The notes beneath the pieces were generated by a model. It ran no database searches, was not told the origin of the DNA, and saw nothing but the letters and a program-made list of their open reading frames with translations. A DNA stretch of 64,000 bases, from the NCBI GenBank assembly GCA_034530615.2, contig JAVRCV020000041.1:64001-128000 (forward strand). Reading direction: 5' to 3'. The first letter of the stretch is position 1, and each line of letters begins with the position of its first letter. Below are positions 40,086 to 59,311 of the stretch, piece by piece. Origin of the DNA: Aulosira sp. ZfuVER01. Its GTDB lineage: Bacteria; Cyanobacteriota; Cyanobacteriia; Cyanobacteriales; Nostocaceae. The position numbers and the translations under genes are program-made.

Positions 40086-40996
40086 TAGTTGATTGGCGAA
40101 GATTAATTCTAATTTTCTCAAAAAGATAAGTCAGGGTTTAAATTCGTTTTAAACTAATATTTATTACTAAATCGATTAGTGCCAAGTGTGTTGTTTATCT
40201 GAACTAGCGATCGCACCATACTTTGCAACTGTATCTAGACAAAGAATTATTATATTAAATATAACCAATCATTTTAAAATAGATAAAAACATTGAATTTC
40301 TGCTAGAAGCATTATCTGGTTTATCTAAGGTTATTTGACGTTGAACTATATAAAGAAGCTGGTAACATCTCACCTTTGCAAAAATATCAAAAGAAAGTTA
40401 CCATACCATTCGCGAAGCTTTACTCTACGGCATCCACAACTGCTAAATGCGAATTTAAGAACGCTAAAGCCAAAATTTTTTTGCACAATGGCTGGTAATT
40501 CACTAGAATATCTTCCAGAGGTTAGCAATATTCTTAGTTTGCGCAAACCAATAATTTAATCCCGATTACAGATATAAACTGTCGCTTAAGTTACATTCAA
40601 CACGAATTAGTAAGTCTCATCTAAATAATTGAGACAACCTTGTGGTAGCAAAGTATTCATTCACAAGTCTTTAACAATTACTATCTGTACAAAAAGAATA
40701 CGTATTTATTTGGGGTAAGATTTTTTCTCTGCAAAAAATCCTGCTAAAAACATAGATGATTGAAATAAGACTGACAGAATGTTTACCTGTGATGCTGAAC
40801 GAAACACACTTTAATAAGTAATAAGCTAAATTATATGCTTTGCCAACTCTGTGTTCAGCATGACAGAATTACGTTGTTATGCGTAAGTCCTGTTAAAATT
40901 TTTGGTTTATCTGACGAACTCTAGGAAATTAGTATGAACGCCAAGCAGTTACACGGGAAGCAGCTTTATCGTCAAGGTGTTAGAGGTTAAAAGCGA

Positions 40997-43177
40997 ATGG
41001 GGCGATTTGAGAAGCAACCAGACAACCCGCGAGTTAGAGGCGATTTATCCAGAGCAGCCGAAAATGCTCTCTGGGCAGTTGTTGAGGACTTAGAAAATCT
41101 TCAGCAGCACGTACTGCGGTCGTTACAGGAAGAAGTAAAGCGGCTTCAGGCGGAAAAAAATCGTTTAAGTGATGATATTCAACGACTGCTTGATGAGAAA
41201 GAACAGTTACAACAGGCGCGCCAAATCACCGAGCAGCAGGTGTTAATCCGTCAGTTAGCAGAAGCTTTGGCAAAGCATATATCTTCGCAACTGCAATCCT
41301 CGTTGACGACTTTAGCTAACCAAGCAATAGAGACTAACTCCTCTGAAAAAGCAACTTTAGGCTCAGAACAGAACAATGAAAAAGTAGAAAAACTGCTTGG
41401 CTCCCTAGATGATACCCTCACCATCACCTTTACCTCACTGCAACAAGAGCTAAAGAACTATCAAAGCAATCTTTCCCAACAGTTGTCTAGGATGCAAAAT
41501 CAACAACAGCAAGGGGAAGCGATCGTAGCGGAGTTAATCAATCGGTTGCAAGATCTGGAAAAAACAATTGTAGAAACTCCACTAAAAGCCGTACAAGTAT
41601 CACCGCCTACTGTGTTGCAGTTATCTGAGCAGCCAAAAGCCAAAGTCTCACCACCCACAGTTTTGCAACTACCGCAAGAGCAACAAAACATTTCTTGGAA
41701 TTCCCCGCAGTCAGAACAGAAAAATAGCCAAGCTACCGAAGCCCTGACATTTACTCAGAGTCAAACTGCTTTACAGCCGGAGAGTTTAGCAGCACCACCA
41801 GAAGCAACTGTCACCGAACCAAGTTTTGTCATTTCTCCAGATTTGTCGGAGAGTGAATCTACACCGGAGCCTACTTTACCTTCCACGGAAGTAATATATC
41901 CACCCTTCAGGAGAAATGACCCTGAGCCAAGTTCTGTGATATCTGGGGATGCGTTCGAGAGTGAATCTACATCGGAGTCTGCTTTTCCATTACCAGAAGC
42001 TACTCCCCCACCAGTCAGGAATAATCCTGATGAGCCAAGTTCTGTCATTTCCCCAGATTTTTCGGAGAGTGAAACTACACCGGAGCCTGTTTCATCCCGC
42101 AAGCAGGGAGTAGCACCACCATCACTAAGTTTACCTAGTTCATCAAGCTTATCGTCTATTCAGATAGGTTTTGTGCTGATTGTGTTGTCAGCGGTAGTGT
42201 CATCGCTTTACAACGTAGCTATTAAGGTGATTTTTCACCAAGGTTCTGAGATTCTGGGATTAGTGGAAGTAGAGCGTTTGCTATTACCAACTTTAGGCAA
42301 TACGCTATTAATTTTAATGCTGCGGTTATTGGTGGTTGTACCGCTAATGTTGCTGTTAGCGCCGATGATGCATCCACGAGTATGGGAAGACTTACAAACA
42401 CTATTTAGCTCAGTACGTGGAAATTCTTCTGCTAGCAATAACAAGACACGAAAGATTTTGCAGTTATCGATCGCTAGCGGATGTTTTTTGTTTTTATCGC
42501 AAGTGCTGATTTACATTGCTATCAGCCAAGTCACTACTGGGATGGCGATCGCACTTTTCTTTATCTATCCAGTAATTAGCGGACTCTTGTCTTGGTTTTT
42601 ATTCCGCGATCGCCCTAGCAGATTCCGCACTGCTGCTATTGGTGGTGTTTTTTGCGGCGAGTTGCTGATATTGGGAGGTGCTACCAGCATTGCTCTTGGT
42701 AATGTTCCCCTCGGAAGTATTACAGCAATTTTGTCAGGAGTAGCTTTTGCTGTCTACGTCGTCCTCACACGCATTTGTGCTAGCAAACTGCATCCGGTTT
42801 CTTTTACTTTGATTAACTTCGCCACCATGTTGCTGTTAAGTTTGATCGGTTTGATGATACCTTTACCCAGCGACTTAGGTTTAGTTATCGACAAACCCTC
42901 TAAGTTATTGGAAATTATTTTAAGTGCTTTTATTTTGGGTGTCCTAACTCTCTTAGGCTACGTGTTCAATAATGTTGGCATTCGCAAACTAGGTGCGCCA
43001 CGTTCGGCAATTATCGGTGCAAGCGTGCCATTCTTAACTGTGATTTTTGCTGGGTTGCTGATTCAAGAAAACTTAGAGCTTGCACAAATTTTGGGAGTGG
43101 TGCTAGTAACTTTCGGTGCAGCAGCTTTTAGCTTTGACAAAGTGCGAAATCAGCTTAATTCTAATCCACCCAATTAA
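40997..43177 (+). CDS. sepJ: SepJ (FraG) septal junction protein: coiled coil, Pro/Ser linker, DMT permease
   Basis: MGRFEKQPDN...coiled coil (QQVLIRQLAEALAKH), P/S/E-rich linker, C-terminal EamA-type TM region. Confidence 0.93.
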   Translation: MGRFEKQPDNPRVRGDLSRAAENALWAVVEDLENLQQHVLRSLQEEVKRLQAEKNRLSDDIQRLLDEKEQLQQARQITEQQVLIRQLAEALAKHISSQLQSSLTTLANQAIETNSSEKATLGSEQNNEKVEKLLGSLDDTLTITFTSLQQELKNYQSNLSQQLSRMQNQQQQGEAIVAELINRLQDLEKTIVETPLKAVQVSPPTVLQLSEQPKAKVSPPTVLQLPQEQQNISWNSPQSEQKNSQATEALTFTQSQTALQPESLAAPPEATVTEPSFVISPDLSESESTPEPTLPSTEVIYPPFRRNDPEPSSVISGDAFESESTSESAFPLPEATPPPVRNNPDEPSSVISPDFSESETTPEPVSSRKQGVAPPSLSLPSSSSLSSIQIGFVLIVLSAVVSSLYNVAIKVIFHQGSEILGLVEVERLLLPTLGNTLLILMLRLLVVVPLMLLLAPMMHPRVWEDLQTLFSSVRGNSSASNNKTRKILQLSIASGCFLFLSQVLIYIAISQVTTGMAIALFFIYPVISGLLSWFLFRDRPSRFRTAAIGGVFCGELLILGGATSIALGNVPLGSITAILSGVAFAVYVVLTRICASKLHPVSFTLINFATMLLLSLIGLMIPLPSDLGLVIDKPSKLLEIILSAFILGVLTLLGYVFNNVGIRKLGAPRSAIIGASVPFLTVIFAGLLIQENLELAQILGVVLVTFGAAAFSFDKVRNQLNSNPPN

Positions 43178-44403
43178 ATTGGTAGTAGCAGCTAACCCAC
43201 CCTACTTTAAGATACTCAACTTCTTGCAGACAGTTGTAGGGTGGCTTGCCGCAGGAAAGCGACTGGCATAGCAGAGAGCAGAGGAAAGAGAATTTTGGTT
43301 TTTTACATAGAATTATTTGTTAATATTATGACACCATTGTGTGAGGATTTGGCTCTACCAATCTTTAGCTCAACTGCGGGGCAGCCATTTATCTCTACAA
43401 AAAATATAATTATACGTTTTATAAGTATAATTATTTACTTTGATATGTTTTCTACGATCTGTGCAGCAAAACTATATATTTATTAATTATTTTTATCTAT
43501 ATTGAAATTTATTACAATCTTTATGCCCTGTATCAGTTATTGATTTTTTTGATTATAAATAGGTTTAAGCCGTTAGTGGTAAAGCCCCTGGCAAATACCT
43601 GGTACTCAATTTATTTAACAAAACATAATTGTATAACTGGTAGCATACTGTTAAAATCAAATGCTGAGTTAAATTCGGTCAGATAAAACCTAATAGTTCT
43701 ATTGGCATAGTTGGCCCTGACATTGAAAAGCAATTTCATAAAATCTTTGTTAAATTATTCTTGGTTAGTGTTGATTCTGCTAGATTTTATCAAGGTTGAA
43801 GTTATTGCCAAAATTGGCAAATTATAATTCCGTCTTGTTAGCCATTGCTCAGTCTTTCAATTTATAAATCAATCAAGCTCATAGCAGTTAAGCTATCAAA
43901 ACCTGCTAAACATGAGATGCGCTTGCCGTCTTCACCTTTTAAGAAAATAATTGCTGCCGAAATTGTTTGTTTCAGCAATTACAGAGAATCTCACGTTAGT
44001 GAAGTACACAATATAGGCCTTTAAGTCAAATAGAAAGCCTGTTTTACTTCTAAATTCTGAATTCTGCTGTAATTATTTCCAACGAAAAAACTTTGGTATT
44101 AAATAATGCCATTAGTTATCCTTATATCCTTAAAATTCAACCAAAATCTAAATTTTGTTGCGTCTTAATTCATCAAGTGCAATTCATTGACTTATTTGGG
44201 TGAGAAAATTATTGATCTATGGGAAGTTTACGAATGCAACCTTGGCATTGTTACAAATCTTAGCCTCCCAAACCGATATTTTCCTTCTTTGATAGATACC
44301 TGAGCTTGTAGGTGCAGAAGACTGGTTGGTAAATCATTGCAGCCCTTAATCTAGTCCTTTTTTACCTCACTATCAAGTGCGCGCTTCTTTAAAGGAGGCT
44401 TTA

Positions 44404-44769
44404 ATGAAACATATTTTAGTTGTAGATGATTCGGCAACAATGCGGCGGATGGTGATGGCATCGCTGCGAGATTTAACAGATGTGAGTTTTACCCAAGCCA
44501 GTAACGGTTTAGAAGCGATTGAATCCTTGGTAATCGCACCAGTGGATTTGATGATTTTGGACTTAAATATGCCGGAAATGCACGGACTGGAAGTATTACA
44601 GTTTGTGCGCGCACATCAAAACTATGACAAAATTCCCATCATTGTTTTAACTACCAGAGGCGATGAAGCAAGCCGTACCGCAGCGCTGAATGCTGGTGCG
44701 TCGCGCTATTTAACAAAACCATTTGAACCTCAGACATTTGTTGTTGAGGCACAGGATTTATTGAATTAA
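44404..44769 (+). CDS. cheY: Single-domain response regulator (CheY-like)
   Basis: ILVVDDS, ILDLNMP, LTT, TKPF; AAGGAGG RBS. Confidence 0.88.
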   Translation: MKHILVVDDSATMRRMVMASLRDLTDVSFTQASNGLEAIESLVIAPVDLMILDLNMPEMHGLEVLQFVRAHQNYDKIPIIVLTTRGDEASRTAALNAGASRYLTKPFEPQTFVVEAQDLLN

Positions 44770-44785
44770 ATATCGAGAAAATTAC

Positions 44786-46948
44786 GTGTCTACTACTGAT
44801 ACAGAAACCAACAATTTATTCGTTGAATTTCTTGACGATTATTTTGCCGAATCAGAAGAACACCTAGCGGTTATACGCCAAAATTTACTGACGCTGGAGG
44901 CGTTTGTAGATCGATCGAGTATTGAGCGATCGCTAGTTGACGAACTTTTCCGCAGTTTTCACACACTTAAAGGTCTGTCAGGCATGGTTGGCCTCAAAGA
45001 GGCAGAGCAACTTGCACACCAAATGGAAAGTTATCTACGGGAACTGCGCGACAACCAAGTAGTTCTCACAGCACAGGGAATGGATGCCCTGATCGGTGGC
45101 ACCAAAATGTTGGATCTGACGATCGCCAACCACCGTACCCATAATCCACTGCCTGATATCGCGCCTGCGATCGCTAAATTAACAGCTGTGTTTACCGATG
45201 ATTCTTCCCCAACAGGGGATGGAAATGAAGAGATAGGGAAACAGGGAAATGGGGTTGTACAAGAGGCAAAGACAACCAGATGCGAAGCCGATCAAATTTC
45301 CCCTGCTGTGCCACTGCTGAAACTTAAACCAGAAGAAAGCGCGCAGATTGCTGCCGCCCTTGCTAGCGGCAAACAGGCTTGGTGCTTTACCTTCATGCCT
45401 AACGCTGCACTCGCCCAACGCGGAATCAACGTCAACAACTTGCGCCAACGCTTACAATCAATTGGTGAACTAATTCACGCCTCGCCACGAATGACTGCAA
45501 CTGGCGGTGTTGTGTTTGATTTTGTCGTCGCTACCCAGACAGATCCAGAGACATTTGCTAGCTGGCATGAAGACGGACTGAGCTTTACGCCCTATTTGGA
45601 AGAAGCAAGAGAGCAGGAAGCAGGTGAGGAACAAGAAAAAATACCAGCAGAACTTCCTCCATCTGTTGTCAGTCTCCCTATTTCCCCATCAGCCTCTTCT
45701 CCCGTTACCCCTGCTACTGCATCGTCAAATTTTGTGCGTGTGGATTTAGCACGTTTGGATGAATTGATGCGGATGGTGGGCGAACTGGTAATTAGCCGCG
45801 CTCGCTTGGAAGATAACCTGAACCGCTTACCCAATACCGTTCCTGCGCTGCAATTACGTACCTTGAGAGAAACTAACTTAATGCTTGAACGCCAGTTGCG
45901 TGAGTTGCGCGAAGGCGTGATGCGAGTGCGTTTAGTACAGATTGGCGAAATTTTCGCACGAATGCAATTTGTCATCCGTGACATAGCACGAGAAAGTCAA
46001 AAGCAGATTGCCCTCGAACTCAGCGGTCAAGATACGGAAATTGATAAATTTGTAGTTGAGCGGATGATGGAACCGCTTTTGCATCTGGTACGTAACGCCG
46101 TCAGTCATGGCTTGGAATCTGAAACTGAGCGGATAGCACGGGGTAAATCACCAGCCGGAACGATCGCCTTGCGCGCTTCCACCGCCGGAGAAATGGTGGT
46201 GATTGAAATTGAAGATGATGGGCGTGGCGTTGACTTAGAAAAAGTAGTTCAGCGTGCGCGATCGCTAGGGTTAATTGGCTCTGAAGTCCAACCCGACGCG
46301 GCTACTGTGCTGGATATCATCTGCTCATCTGGCTTTTCCACCCGCGAAGAAGCTGATTTAACGAGTGGACGCGGCGTGGGTATGGCAGTCGTGAAAAATA
46401 CGGTGCAAGAACTGGGTGGCTTTTTGACGCTCGATACCCAAGTTGGCATCGGTACACGTTTTAGAATTCAACTGCCACTGACTTTGGCGATCGCAGATGC
46501 GCTGATTGTCTCTGTCGGCGGGCAAACTTTTGCCGTACCACAATCTTCGGTGCGTGAGGTTTTGGAAATACAACCCAACGCGATCGCCAAGTTGGAAAAC
46601 AACGAAATTTTTTCCTACCGGGGCAGTGTATTACCACTGGTTCGCCTTGCTGGCTGCTTTGGGTTAGCTGAATCTCAAACAACAGGAAATTACCGTTGTT
46701 GGCACGCGATTGTAGTTGGTAACGGCTTAAATGCCGTAGCTATCTTGGTAGATCGCATTGTTGGGCAGCAAGAAATTGTCGTGCGTCCCCTAACAGATCC
46801 CCTAGTTCAAGTCATGGGCATTGCTGGTGCAACTGAACTCGGTGATGGGCGCGTAGTTTTGATTCTTGATACATCTGCTTTATTACAAGTTGCCAGGTTA
46901 GCAAGTTTGAAAGTTGGCAAGTTGAAGAGTTTAAAAGCGGTTAATTAG
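44786..46948 (+). CDS. cheA: Chemosensory histidine kinase CheA (Hpt, dimerisation, HATPase, CheW; no C-terminal REC)
   Basis: FRSFHTLKG, VRVDLARLDELMRMVGELV, HLVRNAVSHG, DDGRG, GRGVGM, LPLTLAI, GATELGDG. Confidence 0.95.
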   Translation: MSTTDTETNNLFVEFLDDYFAESEEHLAVIRQNLLTLEAFVDRSSIERSLVDELFRSFHTLKGLSGMVGLKEAEQLAHQMESYLRELRDNQVVLTAQGMDALIGGTKMLDLTIANHRTHNPLPDIAPAIAKLTAVFTDDSSPTGDGNEEIGKQGNGVVQEAKTTRCEADQISPAVPLLKLKPEESAQIAAALASGKQAWCFTFMPNAALAQRGINVNNLRQRLQSIGELIHASPRMTATGGVVFDFVVATQTDPETFASWHEDGLSFTPYLEEAREQEAGEEQEKIPAELPPSVVSLPISPSASSPVTPATASSNFVRVDLARLDELMRMVGELVISRARLEDNLNRLPNTVPALQLRTLRETNLMLERQLRELREGVMRVRLVQIGEIFARMQFVIRDIARESQKQIALELSGQDTEIDKFVVERMMEPLLHLVRNAVSHGLESETERIARGKSPAGTIALRASTAGEMVVIEIEDDGRGVDLEKVVQRARSLGLIGSEVQPDAATVLDIICSSGFSTREEADLTSGRGVGMAVVKNTVQELGGFLTLDTQVGIGTRFRIQLPLTLAIADALIVSVGGQTFAVPQSSVREVLEIQPNAIAKLENNEIFSYRGSVLPLVRLAGCFGLAESQTTGNYRCWHAIVVGNGLNAVAILVDRIVGQQEIVVRPLTDPLVQVMGIAGATELGDGRVVLILDTSALLQVARLASLKVGKLKSLKAVN

Positions 46949-46976
46949 ATCGGTATTAAAAATTGTCGCGATCGCA

Positions 46977-47200
46977 AGGCAGAGGGCAGATGGCAGAGGG
47001 CAGAGGGCAGAAGAAAAAGCAGGGGACAAAGGGGACAAGAGAGACAAGGGAGACAAGGGAGACAAGGGAGACAAGGAAGCAGGGGAGGAAAGAATAACTA
47101 TTGCCCAATGCCCAATGCCCAATGCCCAATGCCCAATGCCCAATGCCCAATAACAAATGACTAATGACTAATGACTAATGACTAATGACTAATGACAAAT
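46977..47200. repeat. Compound STRR-type tandem arrays: (gcagagg)n, (ggagacaag)n, (tgcccaa)n, (taatgac)n
   Basis: Four consecutive arrays fill the cheA-cheW spacer. Confidence 0.9.
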
Positions 47201-47213
47201 AAGGAATTTCATC

Positions 47214-47705
47214 ATGTCAGATTCGCAAACAATTTCTGAACCTTTTATTCTTTTTGAGCTTGCAGGCACAATCTACGCCATGCCTACGAAGGTCGTTCAA
47301 CAGATGGAAATGGTTGAACGGATCACGCCAGTACCAAATGCAGCACCTTTTGTTGAAGGTGTAGTATTTTCTCGCGGTAAGGTGATCCCCGCAATCAATC
47401 TGCGCTCACGATTCGGGTTTGAGAAAATTCCCTACGACGCACGCACGCGCTTGATTGTCATTCACACTAGTAACCGCACAGTTGGCTTAATTGCTGATAC
47501 TGCCAGAGAATTTGTTTCGATTCCGAAGAGCGCCATCCAACCACCACCGGAAGGAATTAGCGGATTAAGTGGCAAGTATTTGTCAAGTATTGCGAATTTA
47601 GGCGATGCCTCCAGCGGGCAAAGCCAACGCATGGTGTTGATTCTCAATCCTGACGAAGTGCTGAATATGACCAGCACTATCTCACCTGTAGCAGTAGGAA
47701 ATTAA
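47214..47705 (+). CDS. cheW: CheW adaptor
   Basis: ITPVPNAAPFVEGVVFSRGKVIPAINLRSRFG, VGLIAD. Confidence 0.93.
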   Translation: MSDSQTISEPFILFELAGTIYAMPTKVVQQMEMVERITPVPNAAPFVEGVVFSRGKVIPAINLRSRFGFEKIPYDARTRLIVIHTSNRTVGLIADTAREFVSIPKSAIQPPPEGISGLSGKYLSSIANLGDASSGQSQRMVLILNPDEVLNMTSTISPVAVGN

Positions 47706-47792
47706 TTATTTAAAAATGTATTTCCGTTTTTAGTTTTTAATTTCATTTTTTCATAGTTCATTGATTGAAACTTTGTTAAATAGGAAAATCTC

Positions 47793-49919
47793 ATGGCAAA
47801 AAAATTTCGCAATTCTAATGGTCATACTGCTAACGGTAATCACAATAATTCTCACGATAGAGACACAATAGTTCGCGATTCTCGAGCTTTTGAAATCACT
47901 CGCGTTCGCGACCAAGCAGAACAAGTCAGCCATGCCGCCGATCAAATTTCGCGGACGATGGATCAAATTTCCTTGGGTGCAGACTCACAGTTGCGATCGC
48001 TCGATGAAACTGTCAGTGGCACCAACCAAATGGTGGTATCCCTCAAAGAAACTGCTAATCAAGCCGAATCAATTGCAGGTTCTACCGAAGAACTCATTTC
48101 ATCAATTAATGAAATGGCAGCTTCCATCGAACAAATTACCGCTACTACAGTTGATACCGCCGCAGCCGTTAATCAAACAGCCAGTTCCATCCAAGAAACA
48201 ACCAATTCAATTCGCTCTGTTGCCGATACTGCCCAAGAAATGTCAACTTCGGCTTCCCAAGTCTCTGCCTCAATGACCGAAGTCTCTGCCTCGGTGAAAA
48301 GCGTCAGTCGAGATACAGAAGTACTTGCCACCTCAATCACCGAAACTGCCGCTTCCATCGAAGAAATGTCCCGTTCAATTCAAGGTGTAGCGCAGAATGC
48401 TACCGATTTGACTATATCTGCCGAAACGACTACTAGTTCAATCAACGAAATGGCAGCTTCCATTGAGCAAGTCTCGGCAACCACAGAAAACTTAGCGGGG
48501 ACGGTAGAAGAAGTCTCTACTTCCATCGAAGAAATAGCGCGATCGGTCGAGGGAGTAGCACAAAACGCTGCCCAAATCACCGAAGTGGCAACAGGCGCTG
48601 CTACCAGTGCGATACAACTCGATCGCTCGATCCGTTCAGTCACAAATCTCACCAAACAAGCCGATGAAATCACCAAACGGGTAGCGCGGAATGCTGAAGT
48701 TGGCGGGGTGACGGTAGAAAAATCAATTCAAGGTTTGAATCGCGTGCGTGACTCAATAGTGCAATCCGCTGACGTTATCCGAGATATGGGCAAGCGCACC
48801 CACGAAATCAGCAGCATTGTCGATACGATTAATTTGATTGCCGAACGCACGAATTTACTGTCGTTAAATGCCTCGATTGAAGCCGCACGCGCTGGGGATG
48901 CAGGGCGAGGTTTTGCCGTCGTTGCGGAGGAAATCCGCAACCTTGCCGAACGTGCCGCTCAAGCAACCACAGACATCGGCACGATCATTAAAGGGCTGCA
49001 AGATGTAGTGCAAGAAGCCGTCACTAAGTCGAACGATGGATTGCGGGTTGCTGACGAAAGCAGTCGCCTGGCTGAAAATGGCGTGAACGGTTTAAAGACA
49101 ATCCTCAAAGGAGTGGAAGAAACCACAGAAGTAGTGCGTCAAATTAGCCATGCTGCTGACGAACAAGTACTGGCGGGACAGACTGTGGTGAATGCAATCA
49201 ACACTACGGCAATGCAAGCCAAAGAAGTGGCGATCGCTACTTCTGAACAAGCCAAAACAACCCAAGGCATTGTTAAGTCCACAACACAAATGCGTAAAAT
49301 TGCCCAGCAAGTTTCCCAGGCAATGAACGAACAAGGACGAGCAGCACGGGACATTATCAAAGCAGCGCAAAATACCACTACCTTGGCAATGCAAGTCAGC
49401 AAAGCCACCTCAGAACAAGCTAAGGGCGCGAATCAAGCCGTGCAAGCAGTAGAATCTATGCGGCGTGGTGCAGCAAACACAACCCGCGCCATCGCTGAAC
49501 AATCCACTGCTAGCGACCAAGTTGCCAAAGAAGCTGAACGCCTAGCACGCCTGATTGCCAACGTCACCAAGGCTATGAACGAACAAGCCACCGCTGCCAC
49601 ACAAATTACAACGGCAGTAGACAATTTGCGACGACAATCCGATCAAACTGCCAAAGCAATGAACGAACAAACACGCGCCGTTAAAGATATGACCTTTGGC
49701 GCACAAAACATTTCAAAACAGATTGGCATGATTACCCGCGCCAATCGAGACCATTCCAATGCCTCAGCCGGAATTCTCAACTCTCTGGCAAATATTCGGC
49801 AAATTAGCGATCGCAATTTCCAAGGAGTCAAAGAAACTCAACGCGCTACTGCTAGTTTGCTAGAACGCTCTCAAGCTCTAGGCGAAATCATGGATCGCAT
49901 GAGTAGAAACGGTAATTAA
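47793..49919 (+). CDS. Cytoplasmic methyl-accepting chemoreceptor, no TM or evident sensor domain
   Basis: IAERTNLLSLNASIEAARAGDAGRGFAVVAEEIRNLAER hairpin tip at about residue 369; long heptad arms on both sides. Confidence 0.93.
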   Translation: MAKKFRNSNGHTANGNHNNSHDRDTIVRDSRAFEITRVRDQAEQVSHAADQISRTMDQISLGADSQLRSLDETVSGTNQMVVSLKETANQAESIAGSTEELISSINEMAASIEQITATTVDTAAAVNQTASSIQETTNSIRSVADTAQEMSTSASQVSASMTEVSASVKSVSRDTEVLATSITETAASIEEMSRSIQGVAQNATDLTISAETTTSSINEMAASIEQVSATTENLAGTVEEVSTSIEEIARSVEGVAQNAAQITEVATGAATSAIQLDRSIRSVTNLTKQADEITKRVARNAEVGGVTVEKSIQGLNRVRDSIVQSADVIRDMGKRTHEISSIVDTINLIAERTNLLSLNASIEAARAGDAGRGFAVVAEEIRNLAERAAQATTDIGTIIKGLQDVVQEAVTKSNDGLRVADESSRLAENGVNGLKTILKGVEETTEVVRQISHAADEQVLAGQTVVNAINTTAMQAKEVAIATSEQAKTTQGIVKSTTQMRKIAQQVSQAMNEQGRAARDIIKAAQNTTTLAMQVSKATSEQAKGANQAVQAVESMRRGAANTTRAIAEQSTASDQVAKEAERLARLIANVTKAMNEQATAATQITTAVDNLRRQSDQTAKAMNEQTRAVKDMTFGAQNISKQIGMITRANRDHSNASAGILNSLANIRQISDRNFQGVKETQRATASLLERSQALGEIMDRMSRNGN

Positions 49920-50033
49920 TTGCACAAGGCAGTCCCAATGCCCCTATGAGTGCTGAGTAGTTTACTTCTTGACTCAAAACTCAGTACTCGGAACTCGGAA
50001 CTGTTTTGCCCAATCCCCCATCCCCAATGACAA

Positions 50034-50666
50034 ATGACAACTGACCATACATTAGATATTGCCATTCAACTTGCCAGCCCTGATGAAGAAATACGACTGC
50101 GAGCTGCTCAAACACTAGCTACAGCTGAAGTGAACGACGCTGAACAAATGCTTGTAAGTGCCTTGGGCGATGCTAGCTGGCAAGTGCGAAGGGCGGTAGT
50201 AAATAGTTTGATTCAGCGCCAAGGGACATCTACTGGCACATTGCTATTGCGATCGCTCCGCCAACATCACCACAACCCCAGTATCTTAAATGGTGTGTTA
50301 CAGGTGTTAAACCACTACCATATAGACACTGTTCCAGCGCTGATTGAATGTCTCAAAGATGCCGATGTGGATTTGCGGATCTATGCAGCACAAGCATTGG
50401 GAGGACAGCACGACAACCGCGCCATCCTCGCCCTCATCTGTGCTCTAGAGGATAGCAACATAAATGTGCGCTATCACGCGATTGATGCTTTAGGGCATCT
50501 ACAGGCAGATGAAGCAGTGGCAGCAATGTTAAAGATTGCCAAATCAGGGGATTGCTTTTTAGCGTTTGCGGCTCTTGATACCCTCAAGCGCATCGGAGAT
50601 CGCACAAAGATACCTCTGCTGGAAGATGAAATCTTCCATACCAGCGCTGCTAATACCCTTAGTTAA
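50034..50666 (+). CDS. HEAT/PBS-lyase repeat protein, possibly C-terminally truncated
   Basis: L.SPDEEIRLRAA, LGDASWQVRRA, LKDADVDLRIYAAQALG, LEDSNINVRYHAIDALG. Confidence 0.85.
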   Translation: MTTDHTLDIAIQLASPDEEIRLRAAQTLATAEVNDAEQMLVSALGDASWQVRRAVVNSLIQRQGTSTGTLLLRSLRQHHHNPSILNGVLQVLNHYHIDTVPALIECLKDADVDLRIYAAQALGGQHDNRAILALICALEDSNINVRYHAIDALGHLQADEAVAAMLKIAKSGDCFLAFAALDTLKRIGDRTKIPLLEDEIFHTSAANTLS

Positions 50667-50818
50667 TTGAGAGATCCAAAATAGGAAGTTAAAAAAACAA
50701 CAAACAAATCTTTAGATTTATAGCAGTTGCCGCTTCTCTCTAAATTTATTTATGGGGATTCCCCTTCTGCCTCCTACCTCCTGCCTCCTGCCTTCTTAAT
50801 TTTTAGAGTGAGTTAGTA

Positions 50819-51682
50819 ATGCAACTAATGTCAAAAAACTTTTTAACAAATCCAACTTTATCTGATAGCACGTTCATACTGTTGCGTGACTTAATTCACG
50901 AACGCATCGGTATTCACTATGAAAACTCTATGCGCGATTTGTTCGCAGAAAAGCTTTCACCCAGAGTGAGTGCTTGTAGTTTGGATTCATTTTTAGACTA
51001 CTACTACTTGCTGAAATATGACTCAGCAGGGGCATCAGAGTGGAAGCACTTAATGGATGCTATTTCAGTTCAGGAAACTTTTTTCTGGCGGGAGATGGAT
51101 CAGGTGCGGGCGCTGGTGGATGTGTTGGTACCCCAACATTTTGCTAGAAATCCGTTAGAGCCACTGCGGATTTGGAGTGCTGCTTGCGCTACTGGGGAAG
51201 AACCACTGACGATCGCTATGGCTTTGAATGAAGCAGGCTGGTTTGAGCGGGCACCGATTGAAATTTACGCCAGTGATGCTAGCCCAAAAGCGATCGCTAA
51301 AGCAAAAGAGGGTGTATACCAGCAGCGTTCTTTTCGGAATTTATCACTCACCTTGCAGGCAAAATACTTCCAGGAAGTACAGCACGGCTGGCGAGTGATG
51401 CCAGAACTCCATTCGCGAATTCAGTGGCAGATAGCAAATTTGATGCTACCAGATGAAATTAAGCATTTAGCCACCGCATCGGTGATATTTTGCCGAAATG
51501 TATTTATTTACTTTTCAGAAAAAACGATCGGTCAAACAGTGCGCTTGTTTTTTGAGGCGATGCCAACACCAGGATATTTATGTATTGCCGCCTCAGAGTC
51601 CCTCTTGAAGCTAACAACTGATTTTGAATTGCAAGAGATAGGAGGTGCATTTGTATATGTAAAACCGGAGCGAGCAAAGTAG
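50819..51682 (+). CDS. cheR: Chemotaxis methyltransferase CheR
   Basis: ETFFWRE, RIWSAACATGEEP, ASD, IFCRNVFIYF. Confidence 0.93.
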   Translation: MQLMSKNFLTNPTLSDSTFILLRDLIHERIGIHYENSMRDLFAEKLSPRVSACSLDSFLDYYYLLKYDSAGASEWKHLMDAISVQETFFWREMDQVRALVDVLVPQHFARNPLEPLRIWSAACATGEEPLTIAMALNEAGWFERAPIEIYASDASPKAIAKAKEGVYQQRSFRNLSLTLQAKYFQEVQHGWRVMPELHSRIQWQIANLMLPDEIKHLATASVIFCRNVFIYFSEKTIGQTVRLFFEAMPTPGYLCIAASESLLKLTTDFELQEIGGAFVYVKPERAK

Positions 51683-51709
51683 AGCTCGGAGTAAAAAATC
51701 AAGAAGATC

Positions 51710-52756
51710 ATGGAGAAAGTAGTTCGTGTTTTGGTAGTAGATGATTCTGCCTACATCCGCAAGGTAATCAAGCAGATGTTATCCCGCAACCCGTTGATTG
51801 AAGTTGTGGGCATTGCTCGTGATGGCAAGGAAGCTTTGGAATTGGTAGAGCAACTTCATCCTGATGTGGTGACAACGGACTTAATTATGCCCACTATGAA
51901 CGGGGTGGAGTTCTTACGCGAGCAAATGAAGCGGTGTCCAGTGCCAACGATCGTTGTCAGCATTACCGACGAGAATACTGAAATGGCGCTGGAGGCACTT
52001 GATGCTGGGGCAGTTGATTTTGTGCAGAAGCCAACTGCACTGGCAACAGAAAAAGTCTTAGAAATCAGTGACGAGTTGATCCAAAAAGTACAAGCTGCTA
52101 CCAATGTGCGCTTGCCAAAGCTAGCAACTATACCGACATCTCGTGCAACAGTTTCACCTTTGGTACGTACACGCAACAAATTAAGGGCGGTGGATATTGT
52201 CGTCATTGGAATTTCCACTGGTGGCCCCCAAGCTCTCAATTTTTTGATTCCCCAGTTGCCGCAAAATCTGAGCGTGCCTGTGGCGATTGTCTTGCACATG
52301 CCAGTTGGTTATACGCAAATGTATGCCGACAGGCTAAATGAGATTTCGCCACTCAAAGTAATAGAGGCACAGGAAGGAGATGTAGTAGAAGCAGGTGTGG
52401 TGTTAATTGCTCCTGCCGGACGGCATCTGAGCTTCATCCGTCAAGCTAATGGCACCGTAGTCACCCATCTAGATTTCCGTCCCTTCGATATGTTGCATCG
52501 TCCGGCGGTGGATGTATTGTTTCAATCGACAGCAGAAGTGTTTGGCGATCGCGTCTTGGGTGTAGTGATGACTGGCATGGGGTCAGATGGCAAAAAAGGT
52601 GCAGCTTGGATCAAAGCCCAAGGAGGCTTGATATTTACTGAAGCTGAGTCAACCTGCGTCGTCTATGGTATGCCGCGATCGGTAGACGAAGCAGACTTGA
52701 GTGACAAAAGCGTGCCGCTCAACCAAATGGCAACAGCAATTCTGGAGGTGCTGTGA
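51710..52756 (+). CDS. cheB: REC-methylesterase CheB
   Basis: REC domain + GISTGGP (Ser), HMP (His), RPAVD, MTGMGSDG (Asp), YGMPR. Confidence 0.95.
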   Translation: MEKVVRVLVVDDSAYIRKVIKQMLSRNPLIEVVGIARDGKEALELVEQLHPDVVTTDLIMPTMNGVEFLREQMKRCPVPTIVVSITDENTEMALEALDAGAVDFVQKPTALATEKVLEISDELIQKVQAATNVRLPKLATIPTSRATVSPLVRTRNKLRAVDIVVIGISTGGPQALNFLIPQLPQNLSVPVAIVLHMPVGYTQMYADRLNEISPLKVIEAQEGDVVEAGVVLIAPAGRHLSFIRQANGTVVTHLDFRPFDMLHRPAVDVLFQSTAEVFGDRVLGVVMTGMGSDGKKGAAWIKAQGGLIFTEAESTCVVYGMPRSVDEADLSDKSVPLNQMATAILEVL

Positions 52757-53121
52757 TGGCGAAAATTTTGATAGTGGATGATTCTAGCCTATCCCGCCGC
52801 ATGATGCGGGGAATCTTGCAATCAAGCGGGCATGAAGTGATTGAGGCGACCGATGGCATCGCTGCGATCGAAAATTATTTTCTGGAAAAACCCGATTTGG
52901 TCTTGCTCGATCTAGTGATGACCGGAATGCAGGGAGAAGAAGTACTAGAAAAATTACGCCAAATGGATGAAAATGCCAGGGTAATTGTCGCTAGTGCCGA
53001 TATTCAGACTTTTACACACACAATGGTTGAGAAAGCAGGGGCGGTAGGCTTTATTAACAAACCATTTGTGGCTGCTAATGTACTCAACACCGTGAATGCA
53101 GTGCTACAAGGAGAGTCGTAA
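52753..53121 (+). CDS. Second single-domain response regulator (CheY-like)
   Basis: ILIVDDS, LLDLVM, ASAD, NKPF; overlaps the cheB stop codon. Confidence 0.88.
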   Translation: MMAKILIVDDSSLSRRMMRGILQSSGHEVIEATDGIAAIENYFLEKPDLVLLDLVMTGMQGEEVLEKLRQMDENARVIVASADIQTFTHTMVEKAGAVGFINKPFVAANVLNTVNAVLQGES

Positions 53122-53747
53122 TGGTACTGACAGATGAACAAAAGGATGCATTAACTGAATTAATTAACATTGGCTTCTCACGCACTGCCTCTTCACTCTC
53201 AGAACTAACAGGCTACCGAGTGATGCTGGACGTACCCCAGATTTCCATTCATCCGATTCGAGAATTAGCTCCGAAGCTAGCCACTTTTGTGCAAGGTGAA
53301 GTTGCTACGGTACAGCAGATTTTCAAGGGACCTGTATCAGGCAACGCCTTATTGCTGTTGAACTATGAGGGAGCCGTGACGCTTACAGATTTATTCACAC
53401 CAGAGAACAACCTGCGTACCCATCGCCTGGATGCCGCAGCTAGCGAAGTACTGACCGAAGTTGGAAATATTCTGTTGAACGCTTGTCTGGGAATTTTTGG
53501 TAATCTGCTAGAAATTCAAATTTCTTTCTCAGTACCGCGTTTGCATCTGGAAGCGCTAGATGGACTGCTCAACTCCCTTGTCATTGGTAAGGAAGAATTG
53601 CGTTACGCGATGGTGATTTATACAGCCTTTCACATCCGAGAAAACTCGGTGAGTGGATATTTAGTCATGGTGTTGGGCGTTGCCTCCCTAGAGTGCTTGA
53701 TTCAGGCCGTAGACAGATGGGCAAACGTACCAATTTACAACGGATAA
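53121..53747 (+). CDS. cheC: CheC-family phosphatase
   Basis: DALTELINIG and EVLTEVGNIL (two ExxN motifs); TAATG coupling to the upstream gene. Confidence 0.88.
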   Translation: MVLTDEQKDALTELINIGFSRTASSLSELTGYRVMLDVPQISIHPIRELAPKLATFVQGEVATVQQIFKGPVSGNALLLLNYEGAVTLTDLFTPENNLRTHRLDAAASEVLTEVGNILLNACLGIFGNLLEIQISFSVPRLHLEALDGLLNSLVIGKEELRYAMVIYTAFHIRENSVSGYLVMVLGVASLECLIQAVDRWANVPIYNG

Positions 53748-53750
53748 ATT

Positions 53751-55721
53751 ATGGAGAGCTTGAGTCAGGTCGTACAACAAAACGAAATCATGCTGCACTG
53801 GCTGAATGACCTTGCAGACCAGGGTATCTTGATTACGGATACTGAATTGAAGATTCGGAGTTGGAACCATTGGTTGGAAATCCACACCGGGTTAAGCAGT
53901 ATAGAAATCATTGGGCGCAATTTACTAGAAGTCTATCCAGAACTTACCCAGCGTCGATTAGATCGTTTTTATCATCAAGCATTAAACGGTCAAGTCGTGG
54001 TACTCTCGCAACGCTTACATGGTTATCTACTCCCGATTCCATCAAGGATCGACAACGGCATATCACCGTATATGCTACAAAGTGTACGCATTGCACCTTT
54101 AATAGAAAACGGTTGCTGCATCGGCACAACTACTGTGATTGGTGATGTAACTGAACGGGTAATACAAGAGGCAGAACTACAACACCAAATTGAGGTACTA
54201 AAACGCGCAGAAGAGCAACTACAAGAACAAGCTGCCCTGCTCAACATTGCCACAGACGCGATTATCGTTCAAGATTTAAAAAACCAAATTGTATTCTGGA
54301 ACAAAAGTGCCGAGCAGTTGTATGGTTGGACAGCCGAGGAAGCCCTAGGCAAGCAAGCTAATCAGCTTTTATACCAAACAACTTCACCTCAACTCAAAGA
54401 TGCTCTGCTCAACATTACCCAGAAACAGGAGTGGCAAGGCGAACTGCGTCAAGTGACAAAAGACGGCAGGGAAGTCATCGTTGAAAGCCGTTGGACAATT
54501 GTACCTGACTCGCAAAAAAACCCAAAATCAATACTTGTTGTTAATACCGACATTACCCAGAAAAAACAACTTGAAGCCCAGTTTCTGCGTATCCAACGAA
54601 TGGATAGCATTGGTACCCTTGCTGGTGGTATTGCACACGACCTCAACAATCTGCTAACACCAATTCTGACAGCCGCTCAACTTCTACAAAAGCAAGTTTA
54701 TCCTGATAACAAGCACCAGCATTTGTTATCAATGATCGAAACCAGCGCTAAACGTGGAGCTAATTTAGTCAAGCAAGTGCTATCTTTTGCACGAGGAATT
54801 GAAGGAAAGCATACAGCTATTCTGGTAGGCGATTTAATTTCGGAAATTCGGCAAATTGTCCAAGCAACATTTCCTAAGCCAATTCAAGTTTACATTGGTG
54901 AGATTCCCAAAAATCTTTTGCCTATTTCTGGAGATTTTACGCAACTGAGTCAGGTTTTTATGAACCTGTGTGTAAATGCTCGCGATGCTATGCCCGATGG
55001 CGGTATTCTGACTATCTGTGCAGAAAATATTTTCATTGATGAAAATTATGCTCGGATGAATATTGAAGCTAAAATTGGTTTTCACGTTGCCATTACTATT
55101 TCAGATACAGGATCTGGTATTTCTCCCACAATAATAGATAGAATTTTTGAACCATTTTTTACGAGCAAAGAGTTTGGACAAGGTGCAGGGCTTGGTCTTT
55201 CAACTGCAATTGGGATTGTCAAAAGTCATGGTGGTTTTGTAAATGTACGCAGCGAAGTGGGAAAAGGAACCGAATTTAAGGTGTTCTTACCAGCAGCACC
55301 GGAATTCCAAACGCCGCCACTAGATGACTTAGATCTGGTAAAAGGGCATAGAGAATTGATCTTAGTTGTGGATGACGAAACCTCAATTCTAGAAACTACA
55401 AAAATATCGCTGGAAGCTAATAACTATAGGGTGCTAATAGCCCACGATGGAATTCAAGCGATCGCACTGTATGCCCAGCATCAACATAAAATTAGTATAG
55501 TGTTGATGGATATGATGATGCCCTCAATAGACGGTCTGACAACCATTCGGACGTTGCAAAAAATTAATCCGCAGGTCAAAATTATTGCCTCTAGCGGATT
55601 CGCTTCCAGTTCAATGAAAGCTGAAGTTACTAACCAGGGCATTAAAACATTTTTGTCGAAGCCTTACACTATGCAAGAATTATTGTCAAGCATTAGTGGA
55701 GTTTTGAGTTGTCAAGGCTAA
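53751..55721 (+). CDS. Hybrid sensor kinase PAS-PAS-HisKA-HATPase-REC
   Basis: Two PAS domains, GGIAHDLNN, NLCVNARDA, DTGSG, FEPFFT, GLGL, REC (VVDDE, MDMMMP, SKPY). Confidence 0.93.
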   Translation: MESLSQVVQQNEIMLHWLNDLADQGILITDTELKIRSWNHWLEIHTGLSSIEIIGRNLLEVYPELTQRRLDRFYHQALNGQVVVLSQRLHGYLLPIPSRIDNGISPYMLQSVRIAPLIENGCCIGTTTVIGDVTERVIQEAELQHQIEVLKRAEEQLQEQAALLNIATDAIIVQDLKNQIVFWNKSAEQLYGWTAEEALGKQANQLLYQTTSPQLKDALLNITQKQEWQGELRQVTKDGREVIVESRWTIVPDSQKNPKSILVVNTDITQKKQLEAQFLRIQRMDSIGTLAGGIAHDLNNLLTPILTAAQLLQKQVYPDNKHQHLLSMIETSAKRGANLVKQVLSFARGIEGKHTAILVGDLISEIRQIVQATFPKPIQVYIGEIPKNLLPISGDFTQLSQVFMNLCVNARDAMPDGGILTICAENIFIDENYARMNIEAKIGFHVAITISDTGSGISPTIIDRIFEPFFTSKEFGQGAGLGLSTAIGIVKSHGGFVNVRSEVGKGTEFKVFLPAAPEFQTPPLDDLDLVKGHRELILVVDDETSILETTKISLEANNYRVLIAHDGIQAIALYAQHQHKISIVLMDMMMPSIDGLTTIRTLQKINPQVKIIASSGFASSSMKAEVTNQGIKTFLSKPYTMQELLSSISGVLSCQG

Positions 55722-56287
55722 GATATTGTTTGGTTAAAGACTATAAAATAGCCAGTTTTGCAGTTGGAAGACAAATCTTCTCACTAGTATCAGTAGTAAG
55801 TTTGAGTTCCCAATCTTGAACTCAAAGTTTTCTTGCTGAGTACGGAGATTTATTACCTCTACTAGCTAACGTCTACATAGAGTTCAGTCGTAGCAGATTA
55901 TATTTACGCCATCCGATCTAAAATCCTGTTTATCATCCCTAGGTAAAAAATAGGTATAAGCATATATCTTGCATTAAGTTATTTATGTAACAAATTTTTG
56001 ATATTGGCTGTAAGGCTCTACTTATCGTAGCATCCCACCTATTCATGGCATTGAAAGGATGAAGTTGACAATAATTACAGTATTTTTACTGATAAAGGCT
56101 AAATAAATAGCAGCAAAAGTCATCTTTTGAGCTATGTGCTAGAAATTACGCGGAAATTCATAATTTTGACTAGCAACAACCTTATAGTTGAAGCATAATA
56201 AATAATCTGGAGTGACAATATTGCCTTCAGTCGGGTGTATACTACTTACTTTCCTACGGCTAATAAATTTGTAAACGTGCTATTTAA

Positions 56288-57199
<912 letters not shown>

Positions 57200-57278
57200 A
57201 TAAATTAGATCGAGGTTCAAGGGACAAGAGTCAAGGATGATAGTTATTTCTTCCTTGCCCCTCTCATCCCCCTGTTCC

Positions 57279-57338
57279 CCTTCGGGTTCGCCACTTTGCC
57301 ATCGTGACGGGAACCGCCAAGACGGCAAGTAGACTCAC
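57279..57338. repeat. Small dispersed repeat within pyrimidine-rich repeats downstream of hetR
   Basis: cccttcgggttcgcca...gacgggaaccgccaagac...ctcacc; cccgaaggg motif shared with 13690 and 16736. Confidence 0.6.
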
Positions 57339-57369
57339 CTGCTCCCTGCTCTCTGCTTGAGAGCGTCAA

Positions 57370-57979
57370 TTATGGTTGTGTAGGAATTGGCACTGCTTCA
57401 AAAGTAGGGCGAAATTCAGTTGCGCTTCCGGGAACTTGCGGTAAAGCTGAAGGTGTAAAGGTACTAACTGTGTCACTGCCACTGATACAAGTATCTAGTG
57501 CTTGATTGAGAGCAAACTTAATTTCACTGCGCAAGCCTACCACGCACTGACCAAAGCGGACGGGTAACAAACTCCGACCGCAGTAATTTAAAATTGCTGG
57601 GTTAGGTGGCTCTTTACTGGGAATAAGGCTAATACCAATTACACAGCTAGCTAACTCTTCAGGTCGTCGAGCCTGTCTACAGGTAGTGAGAGCATCTACA
57701 GCGCTGATTTGTGTCCTTCTGCTAATTGAAACTACACAAGAAGACAAATCCCGTGGACGGAGTGCGCCTGCACAAGCTTGTGATGCAGAGTTTGCATTAA
57801 TATTTACACGCAAGAGCTGACCAGCACAGGCACGGTAATCATTGTTGCTGTAGGAGGCGGTGATAGCCATAGTGGGAACTATCGTTGCCAACCATCCGGC
57901 GATCGCTAAAACTGGCACTGTCACCTTAACTGCTTTAGCCGACAACATTTTATAGTTAGAACCACCTTTTTTGCTCATC
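57370..57979 (-). CDS. Exported Cys-repeat hypothetical protein (start uncertain)
   Basis: Signal-like hydrophobic stretch, then three C..RP/LP..L/F..CV repeat units. Confidence 0.7.
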
Positions 57980-58294
57980 GATTTTTGCTCCTTAACATTA
58001 CCGTTCTCCAAACACCCAAGGCTATGCTAACTCAATAAGTGCAACCAATCTTCTCTATCTAGGCAATTTTAGCGACATAGTTGAGGATAACTCAGGTTAT
58101 TTGTCATTTGTCAATTGTTATTTATCTCCCTCATCCCTCTTGTCCCTCCGAAGTTTTGATGCCTGCGGCAACCCCTCTGGTGTACGGAGGAAGCCTCCGC
58201 TCAGACTTTTCTCCTTGTCCCCCTGCCTCTTTGTCGGGGATCAAAACCCCTGTAGGAGGATTTCTCATGTTTTGATATGCTACGATATTTTGAT

Positions 58295-58652
58295 CGAAGA
58301 TAAGTAGACAACGTAAAAAGTATTTCTTGGTTGAAATACTGCGTGAACCAATCTAGCGATTGAGTAGTCTACGAAACTAGGAAACAAAAAACTAATGGCA
58401 TCGAGTACCTAGGGACACTGGGGAATTTATGCTTGGGAGCCAGTGCGTTGGGGAGGCAGTGCGTTGCGCGGGTTCGCCGCGTTGAAGCAACTGCCGTCGG
58501 TTATACCGACTTAAAGCAACTGGCGTGGAGAAGATACCTCTACTCTGGTTGAATCAATTCTGCTGGAGGAGGCATTTTCGTAGAACCAAGAATCCTCCGA
58601 CTTGACAAACAAATCAGCGATCGCGTTATTTGTTCAGTCGGGGGAGTGTCAA
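58295..58652 (+). mobile_element. Decayed, internally deleted IS200/IS605 (tnpB) remnant retaining the right end
   Basis: Fragments translate to KISRQRK, CVNQSSD*VVYE, ST*GHWGIYAW/GEDTSTLV..NQES (TnpB-like); terminal hairpin aagaatcctccgact...agtcgggggagtgTCAA; left boundary uncertain. Confidence 0.75.
58435..58526. repeat. Nested small dispersed repeat inserted in the tnpB remnant
   Basis: ggagccagtgcgttgg[ggaggcagtgcgttgcgcggg...caactgccgt]cggttataccgacttaaagcaactggcgt. Confidence 0.75.
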
Positions 58653-58700
58653 AATGGAATGTCTGGGTAAAGTTGAAACAGGATTAGATTAAGGAAACAC

Positions 58701-59309
58701 ATGTCCCGATATAGAGGGCCTCGCCTCAGAATTGTACGTCGCTTGGGCGACCTACCAGGATTAACTCGTAAAAGCGCTAGACGCGCTTATCCACCTGGTC
58801 AGCATGGTCAGAACCGCAAAAAGCGTTCTGAGTATGCTATCCGTCTAGAAGAAAAGCAAAAGCTGCGCTTAAACTACGGTCTGACCGAGAAGCAACTGCT
58901 ACGCTATGTCCGTAAAGCCAGACGTGTGACTGGTTCTACCGGACAAGTGCTGTTGCAACTTCTAGAAATGCGCCTAGATAATACGGTTTTCCGCTTGGGT
59001 CTAGCTCCGACTATTCCCGCAGCGCGGCAACTAGTGAATCATGGTCATATCACTGTGAACGGACGTGTAGTTAATATTGCTAGCTATCAGTGCCGTCCTG
59101 GTGAAGTCATCGCTGTCAAGGATAAAGAAGCATCGCGGAAGTTGGTAGAAACCAACCTCCAATATCCTGGACTAGCTAACCTCCCCAGTCATCTGGAGTT
59201 TGATAAAGCCAAGCTGGTTGGTAAAGTCAACGGTGTTATTGAAAGAGAATGGGTGGCACTACAAGTTAACGAACTGCTCGTGGTGGAATACTACTCACGG
59301 CAAGCGTAA
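58701..59309 (+). CDS. rpsD: 30S ribosomal protein S4
   Basis: [36 protein letters not shown]. Confidence 0.98.
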
Positions 59310-59311
59310 GA

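Follow-up and report, generated by a model that had tools for sequence, protein, structure and literature searches.

A chemosensory operon before hetR in Aulosira sp. ZfuVER01 and its possible output through CheC and a PAS kinase

To which target does a complete chemosensory operon signal in a cyanobacterium without a flagellar motor? The outputs of chemosensory systems in flagella-less cells are mostly not known, and the question is raised by a ten-gene operon (44404..55721, all genes on the + strand) encoded directly before hetR in the heterocystous Nostocaceae strain Aulosira sp. ZfuVER01. All positions refer to the window, the whole 64,000-nucleotide stretch that was analysed (GCA_034530615.2, contig JAVRCV020000041.1, positions 64,001 to 128,000). 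The operon is a real one of a widespread, still uncharacterised kind, is apparently functional as judged from its sequence, and is distinguished by a short HEAT-repeat protein, a cheY2-cheC-kinase trio with a dedicated PAS subtype, and its place before hetR. In the reading put forward here, to which we give about an even chance, this intact cytoplasmic operon, likely obtained from another cyanobacterium, would signal via CheY2 and CheC to a PAS hybrid kinase and not to a motor.

Gene content and class of the operon

Every gene of the operon (Table 1) is present in the list of open reading frames (ORFs), and the Pfam and NCBIfam matches and a check of individual residues bear out the first-pass annotation of ten co-oriented genes with intact motifs. 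CheA comprises Hpt, dimerisation, HATPase and CheW domains, with no receiver (REC) domain detected by Pfam, while CheB passes the NCBIfam model NF001965 (374 against a cut-off of 293). The established phospho-acceptor and catalytic residues are retained in CheA (H59), CheB (D57 and S169/H196/D293), CheY1 (D53), CheY2 (D52), CheC (E13xxN16 and E113xxN116) and the kinase (H296 and D587), and the CheR set is also present. The overlapping stops and starts noted earlier in the distal half are likewise found, with cheB/cheY2 and cheY2/cheC sharing one base each and cheC and the kinase gene separated by 3 nt, while the gaps between the proximal genes are 16-265 nt. Deviations at conserved columns are few in CheA (3/165), the methyl-accepting chemotaxis protein (MCP; 7/201), CheR (3/97), CheY2 (3/65) and CheC (3/53), values that do not exceed the range seen in the other copies, suggesting that the cluster is intact and under constraint; decay of the whole cluster is not supported by these counts. 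No membrane segment was found in any of the cluster proteins, no PATAN-type regulator within the cluster (Pfam), no integrase or transposase ORF in the segment and no long repeat in either of its spacers.

The MCP consists of a bare, symmetrical hairpin whose arms span ~340-370 residues, and it has no sensor domain. It is soluble (maximum Kyte-Doolittle value for a 19-mer of 0.84), shows a periodicity of 56 residues (eight heptads) in both arms and carries four matches to the methylation consensus, at -275, -261, -149 and -135 from the tip, at positions that recur in its relatives. It may represent an unusually long receptor class.

The operon does not belong to the type IV pilus (Tfp) class of the Pix/Tax, Hmp and Ptx systems. 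It does not show the Tfp combination of a CheA-REC hybrid with two Hpt domains and a long dimerisation region, a PATAN regulator and no cheR or cheB, and the Tfp-sized CheA proteins of the same genome match this CheA at only 32-34%, in line with the separation from that class made at first pass. It is also distinct from the ACF class, as its CheA has no C-terminal receiver domain. Class was assigned by proxy through published rows. Table S2 of PMC10782961 assigns F1 to the REC-less CheAs of S. hofmannii (769 aa) and C. epipsammum (672 aa), and the orthologues P0140 (S. hofmannii, 62%) and P0142 (C. epipsammum, 61%) match these rows by organism and length. Arthrospira, Phormidium ambiguum and Spirulina subsalsa complete the cyanobacterial organisms with F1 CheAs in that table. 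The Arthrospira cluster NIES39_A07840-A07910, described in 2010 with cheB, cheC and cheR and no patA in the available text of PMC2853384, is probably of the same type as the Aulosira operon. F1 is the Bacillus-type flagellar class, and the flagellar switch family PF01052 has no matches in the Aulosira genome (99.99% complete) and gives matches in 4/14 controls. This absence of the FliM/N family supports the non-motility output proposed in the first-pass annotation. No functional study of the cyanobacterial F1 clusters was found in the literature searches, and the accessible parts of PMC5812497, PMC13342950 and PMC2577667 offer background only and nothing on this cluster.

The CheY2-CheC-kinase trio and the HEAT protein

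The first PAS domain of the hybrid kinase belongs to a distinct subtype, which is 35-70% identical among the kinases encoded after cheC in this cluster type, while the remainder of these kinases varies. Among the Aulosira proteins, the two kinases encoded after the cheC genes, both of them part of the training set, reach 210 and 187 bits against the PAS profile, and no other protein exceeds 25 bits; the same 14 loci supplied the neighbouring genes for both the PAS and the CheC profile. Among 251 genomes drawn evenly from the order, the PAS subtype is encoded in 80, of which 79 also encode CheC, and CheC in 84, of which 79 also encode the PAS subtype. For 91 of the 140 PAS hits, cheC is the immediately preceding gene (median gap 27 bp). 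The remaining 49 include 33 long, low-scoring frames, assigned as PAS-HEAT proteins by size and confirmed as such only at the loci opened, and 23 of these 33 are within 8 kb of a cheC gene. When HEAT-sized frames and hits below 103 bits are set aside, the proportion directly behind cheC is 91/103, or 88/100 once the two training genomes are left out. In 28/30 loci, cheC itself comes after a receiver gene. The trio stands alone, with no cheA, cheB or cheR in ~10 kb upstream, in three of the six loci found with CheC alone, and it also flanks a different type of CheA on contig C73 of the Aulosira genome. The cheY2-cheC-kinase trio is a movable module. Some cyanobacterial copies (L042:15101-16396 and L094) contain tandem cheC genes, or serial cheY-cheC-kinase modules with cheB displaced.

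In a wider search, the PAS profile retrieves 404 representatives at E<=1e-30, and the domain is N-terminal in nearly all of those listed. Sixty proteins with a single match and moderate length were sampled among the 150 best, and of these 50 have a kinase ATPase domain and two a GGDEF domain. The predicted PAS fold is plain (pLDDT 88), and its top solved match is 3mxq, an uncharacterised domain of V. cholerae, which led to no ligand assignment.

Following established chemotaxis biochemistry, the soluble MCP, CheW and CheA would form an array, CheA would phosphorylate CheY1, CheY2 and CheB, and CheR and CheB would reset the array by methylation. On the strength of genomic linkage, CheC is proposed to bind phosphorylated CheY2 (CheY2~P) and end that signal, and CheC with CheY2~P bound may contact the first PAS domain of the kinase and alter its activity, after which the kinase would relay to a receiver elsewhere in the genome. 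The contact between CheC and PAS is likened to the CheY~P-CheC-CheD circuit of B. subtilis and Thermotoga, in which B. subtilis CheC binds CheD. A two-site CheC phosphatase encoded beside CheY, here proposed to act as an adaptor too, is common to both, whereas the Aulosira cluster lacks cheD and CheC is proposed to pair with a PAS domain carried by a distinct protein, the kinase.

Several observations weigh against this mechanism. Linkage is not binding, and co-inheritance of an operon would be expected to give the same counts, in which kin are not independent. Counted in reverse, 91 of the 148 cheC hits have the PAS subtype directly behind them and 57 do not, two of the six loci with CheC alone lack the PAS, and no CheC-PAS fusion was found among the proteins fetched. 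The trio is not a universal output, as copies lacking cheY2, cheC or the kinase occur (L009, L015, L037, L044, L045 and L093). The PAS subtype also heads long HEAT proteins and may, given its presence there, be a ligand sensor. In this strain the receptor is devoid of a sensor domain and the HEAT protein devoid of PAS, so that neither offers an evident input to the system. Finally, the short HEAT frame has been kept open across sequences 80-86% identical, which argues for a retained role. Nothing on a link between CheC and PAS was found by title or passage in the literature covered, which excludes paywalled papers.

The role of the HEAT protein also bears on the first rival reading, in which CheY1~P binds the HEAT protein and the latter controls a developmental or stress response, as in the Che7 system of Myxococcus xanthus. 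The gene order cheY-cheA-cheW-mcp-HEAT-cheR-cheB claimed at first pass to match che7 does agree with the tags in PMC3945109 (MXAN_6965-6959), whose accessible part gives cheY7, REC-less cheA7, cheW7, soluble mcp7, cheR7 and cheB7, with one locus tag outside its tables; the tag of the che7 HEAT gene was inferred from this gap. Both systems have a REC-less CheA of ~700 aa and a cytoplasmic MCP whose signalling domain is central and whose arms are long, and neither has a flagellar target. The HEAT protein of che7, Cpc7, binds CheY7 and regulates development (Darnell et al. 2014, as cited in PMC11514114 and PMC9040617). The likeness is one of layout. In M. xanthus, des7 accompanies che7, and the fatty-acid desaturase gene beside the Acidobacteriota copy L010 echoes this arrangement; it directly precedes the Pyrinomonadaceae cluster, at L010:632-1588. 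The Aulosira operon differs from che7 in its 210-aa HEAT protein, in the added cheY2-cheC-PAS kinase trio and in its nearest relatives, which are cyanobacterial. The CheA class also differs by proxy. Table S2 of PMC10782961 lists M. xanthus REC-less CheAs of 857 aa (F1), 862 aa (F10) and 687 aa (F13), and the lengths in PMC3945109 identify these as DifE, CheA8 and CheA7, the last by length and elimination. By these proxy rows the cyanobacterial orthologues are F1 and CheA7 is F13, a class that includes Opitutus and Gemmata rows, so mis-assignment is possible, and for which the literature searches found only unrelated matter. By this proxy, membership of the Che7 class is not supported, and "Che7-like" describes gene order only.

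The HEAT protein itself qualifies an otherwise confirmed cluster, as it covers no more than the N-terminal quarter of the related proteins. Among the relatives above 368 aa, the 120 best have lengths of 652-1147 aa and run a median of 575 residues past the stop in this strain, so that ~580 C-terminal residues are missing, and no remnant of them was found in the spacer or the genome. Many of the long relatives start with a PAS domain, and those in the cyanobacterial F1 clusters opened, none of which lies beside hetR, are 790-1100 aa long, mostly with an N-terminal PAS. A search near its own length returned six other proteins, three of which (211-227 aa, 80-86% identity) share a four-residue deletion and nearly the same end, suggesting that the short form is old and kept, although two of the three are on short contigs (1.9 and 1.1 kb). 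Recent pseudogenisation was dropped because of these three sister sequences; the frame deviates at 5/52 conserved columns against 0-14% in the others and is not visibly decayed. The retained length and low deviation favour a HEAT-mediated output, but the 27 helices described for Cpc7 (Darnell et al. 2014, via PMC11514114/PMC9040617) would exceed what 210 residues hold, and the HEAT gene is absent from three of the nine clusters compared, all from Verrucomicrobiota (L012, L014 and L017). The shortening and this absence lower the case for the HEAT protein as the output, as the first-pass annotation had it, and a Che7-type output is considered unlikely. The short HEAT protein probably serves as an accessory scaffold or binds CheY1 rather than being the main output.

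Position between sepJ and hetR

The operon lies between hetR and a gene presumably corresponding to sepJ, named from its architecture and its synteny with hetR (Table 1). These two genes are adjacent in 16 of 24 family genomes, including nine of 14 congeners, and apart in the other five congeners. Homology to the empty site stops at ~43192 and resumes at ~55753, 547 bp before hetR, with ~12.6 kb here in place of a ~0.5-1 kb spacer, and the left part of the replaced segment (43193..44403) has no homology to the sepJ-hetR spacers of relatives. Missing from this strain is a block of ~150 bp that in relatives lies at a distance of ~650-900 bp before hetR (485-600 bp in the case of G024). It was found in 14/14 aligned relatives (leave-one-out E<=2.7e-4) and in both of two held-out genomes (E 7e-19 and 7e-14), and was absent from both spacers here (best -1.1 bits) and genome-wide at E<=1, where the two-spacer search is as sensitive as the controls and the weakest block controls would fail the genome-wide threshold. 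The block contains an aligned TGnTAnnnT extended -10 motif in 13/14 relatives, suggesting that it is a promoter, and the lost block is likely one of the promoters of hetR as judged from this motif. Among the congeners opened, the three with other genes in front of hetR (G011-G013) retain the block. In PCC 7120, hetR reportedly has four start sites, and two of its starts, near -696 and -728, are under NrrA control. NrrA activates hetR according to the accessible part of PMC4390870, while a fragment from -695 to -250 suffices for heterocyst-specific expression of hetR in PCC 7120 according to that of PMC7377430.

A second rival reading follows, in which the operon replaced the distal promoter, its transcript reads into hetR and the control of the operon sets part of hetR expression. 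The kinase gene and hetR are co-oriented and 578 bp apart, which together with the loss of a block conserved even in G011-G013 speaks for this reading, as does one contig from a separate study (run X4) that joins the kinase end to the hetR leader. This contig, at a depth of 2.6 and 90% likeness, has its joint from 55731 to 55928 with a 196-bp skip, and provides weak support for the junction being real and shared, while the contigs of run X3 cover only hetR and a short piece, those of runs X1 and X2 align nowhere here, and none of the three runs confirms the junction; they contain 99-100% of the sampled words but may themselves be the source. No contig covers the left junction or the HEAT region. 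Against rewiring stand the sufficiency of the PCC 7120 fragment, the frequent rearrangement of a site at which sepJ and hetR are apart in five of 14 congeners, and the other family copy (G368) and other cyanobacterial copies opened, which are not beside hetR. A terminator-like hairpin at 55801-55826 in the retained leader also counts against it; its arms are also present in G006 and G013, and it may be an RNA processing or stabilising element instead of a terminator. Rewiring of hetR by the operon is thus held to be distinctly unlikely. A wider proposal, that hetR exchanged its distal promoter for the operon and is co-transcribed with it, and that CheY~P-bound CheC gates this PAS on kinases, cyclases and HEAT scaffolds across phyla as a general adaptor, is regarded as equally doubtful. 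Most likely, the operon came to lie before hetR incidentally, through insertion at a site prone to rearrangement, and its place there is tolerated since the proximal leader has been retained.

Capture of the distal hetR promoter by the operon, with the block moved before cheY1, was considered and rejected, as the best profile match in the spacer scores -1.9 bits and the single GTA-N8-TAC there lacks a -10 box at the customary spacing and is no more than chance would yield in 1.2 kb of AT-rich DNA. A scan for the DIF1 motif gave scattered near-matches that are unaligned across relatives, and no Rfam match was found between 38000 and 60000. Foreign genes have entered the sepJ-adjacent site repeatedly. 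G008 is closely related as judged from SepJ, and there other cargo follows sepJ instead of hetR (L021:1-3800) and includes a pair resembling a toxin-antitoxin system, as judged by eye. A HIP1 site occurs in the sequence inside the X4 joint, and in G011 and G012 there is a HIP1 site close to the corresponding position of the leader; HIP1 may mark a point of rearrangement.

Elsewhere in the window, a conserved gene convergent with hetR (57370-58011, - strand) has no NCBIfam or Pfam match and encodes repeated Cys motifs and a likely signal peptide. A low-GC stretch (38800-40400, 32%) without an ORF of at least 90 aa separates a DUF6875 gene from the upstream region of sepJ, and a PP2C-domain gene followed by a CHAT-FHA gene (461-4470, - strand) forms a Ser/Thr signalling pair at the window start.

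Table 1. Features of the chemosensory operon and its flanks in the window
Feature	Position	Strand	Remarks
sepJ/fraG-like gene, left flank	40997..43177	+	coiled coil, Pro/Ser linker, EamA permease; no family cut-off behind name
AT-rich left part of replaced segment	43193..44403		presumed operon promoter region
cheY1	44404-44769	+	single receiver domain; Pfam
cheA	44786-46948	+	without receiver domain; Pfam
cheW	47214-47705	+	Pfam
mcp	47793-49919	+	soluble, without sensor domain; Pfam
short HEAT-repeat gene	50034-50666	+	210 aa, N-terminal part of 790-1100 aa form
cheR methyltransferase	50819-51682	+	Pfam
cheB	51710-52756	+	receiver and methylesterase; Pfam, NCBIfam
cheY2	52756-53121	+	opens output trio
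cheC	53121-53747	+	two ExxN motifs
hybrid kinase	53751-55721	+	CheC-associated PAS (~residues 9-149), second PAS, HisKA, HATPase, receiver
retained proximal hetR leader, 547 bp	55753..56299	+	distal conserved block missing
hetR, right flank	56300..57199	+	NF009718, 625 bits, cut-off 489

Distribution, origin and significance

With CheR as a probe (E<=1e-75), the cluster was found in only two of 389 family genomes, this one and G368, and in none of the 14 congeners, which bears out the earlier proposal that it was acquired in this lineage. In the order sample it is present in 38/251 genomes, representing 21 of 110 genera. The operon is rare in heterocyst-formers and common in non-heterocystous relatives belonging to several families of the order. 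A phylum sample covering all cyanobacterial orders yielded 5/401 genomes under a stricter MCP cut-off, and the order-level count is the better guide. A synteny survey of the kind suggested at first pass recovers the same layout in cyanobacteria and in other phyla, with the same gene order in nine of ten loci in Acidobacteriota, Syntrophobacteraceae, Verrucomicrobiota and Bacteroidetes records. A tree built from the concatenated proteins of 18 clusters groups the copies from cyanobacteria with one unclassified record (86% ultrafast bootstrap, UFBoot), and the Aulosira CheA nests among CheAs named as cyanobacterial, with a sister CheA (P0122) that is 81% identical. The segment has the native density of HIP1 sites (13 observed against 12.1 expected), the GC content at third codon positions (GC3) of the cluster is mostly one to two standard deviations (SD) above the genome mean, as is that of hetR, and only one of 72,556 plasmid records contains the MCP. 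The simplest history suggested by these sequences is likely a gain from another cyanobacterium and not from a myxobacterium, while retention with many losses in the family may be an alternative. Direct transfer from a myxobacterium or soil heterotroph is unsupported by the trees, in which no myxobacterial sequence is included.

The uniqueness within Nostocales stressed in the first-pass annotation stands only in part, as the cluster is confined to two of the family genomes searched and its orthologues occur across the order; the weight placed there on this uniqueness and on a Che7-type output exceeds what either can carry. The claim that cheR and cheB are missing from such operons in Nostocales is wrong, as shown by the second cluster on contig C73, a locus of N. 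punctiforme (accessible part of PMC5913679) and the Arthrospira clusters (that of PMC2853384). The Aulosira genome encodes nine CheB domains and seven CheA-type proteins, six besides the one described here. The C73 cluster (52500-63800 of that contig) encodes a further REC-less CheA, which has two CheW domains, together with CheW, a HAMP-MCP, CheB and CheR, and carries the cheY-cheC-PAS hybrid kinase trio in divergent transcription. It is apparently genus-wide, being present in all four relatives opened (L046-L049), with a CheA match of that size and score in 14/14 congeners. For N. punctiforme, Table S2 of PMC10782961 lists five CheAs, one ACF and four Tfp, all with a receiver and none of the C73 type, and deletion of its cheAWRB/MCP locus left hormogonia, motility and phototaxis unaffected (Campbell et al. 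2015, as cited in PMC5913679). The latter locus resembles the present operon in being a che operon of Nostocales that includes cheR and cheB and has no known motility role, whereas the N. punctiforme CheAs all have receivers and none has this layout.

That deletion without a laboratory phenotype, the absence of the cluster from 387 of the 389 family genomes, the truncated HEAT protein and the six further CheA-type proteins are all consistent with the operon being a tolerated passenger, redundant with the resident C73 system and of little effect in this strain. Apart from HEAT, all nine frames are intact and deviate little at conserved sites, and the sister CheA (81%) and short HEAT proteins (80-86%) indicate long residence in the lineage, making this very unlikely. 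True taxis, in which CheY1 would target the type IV pilus motor of hormogonia and CheR and CheB would provide temporal adaptation, draws on the complete adaptation and phosphatase set, the chemotaxis proposed for similar Arthrospira clusters in the accessible part of PMC2853384 and the frequency of the operon in several non-heterocystous families of the order, but is highly improbable given the lack of a PATAN-type regulator in the cluster and of a sensory or membrane domain in the receptor, and the same layout across unrelated phyla.

If neither the proposed output nor the hetR reading holds, the Aulosira operon is a further copy of a known, uncharacterised operon. The strain nonetheless constitutes a natural experiment on the control of hetR, its likely distal promoter, a block kept by every relative tested, being either dispensable or replaced. 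The CheY-CheC-PAS trio provides a concrete, readily testable candidate output for a widespread class of chemosensory operon and for the resident Nostocales system, and its PAS subtype reaches about a third of the order genomes searched (80/251).

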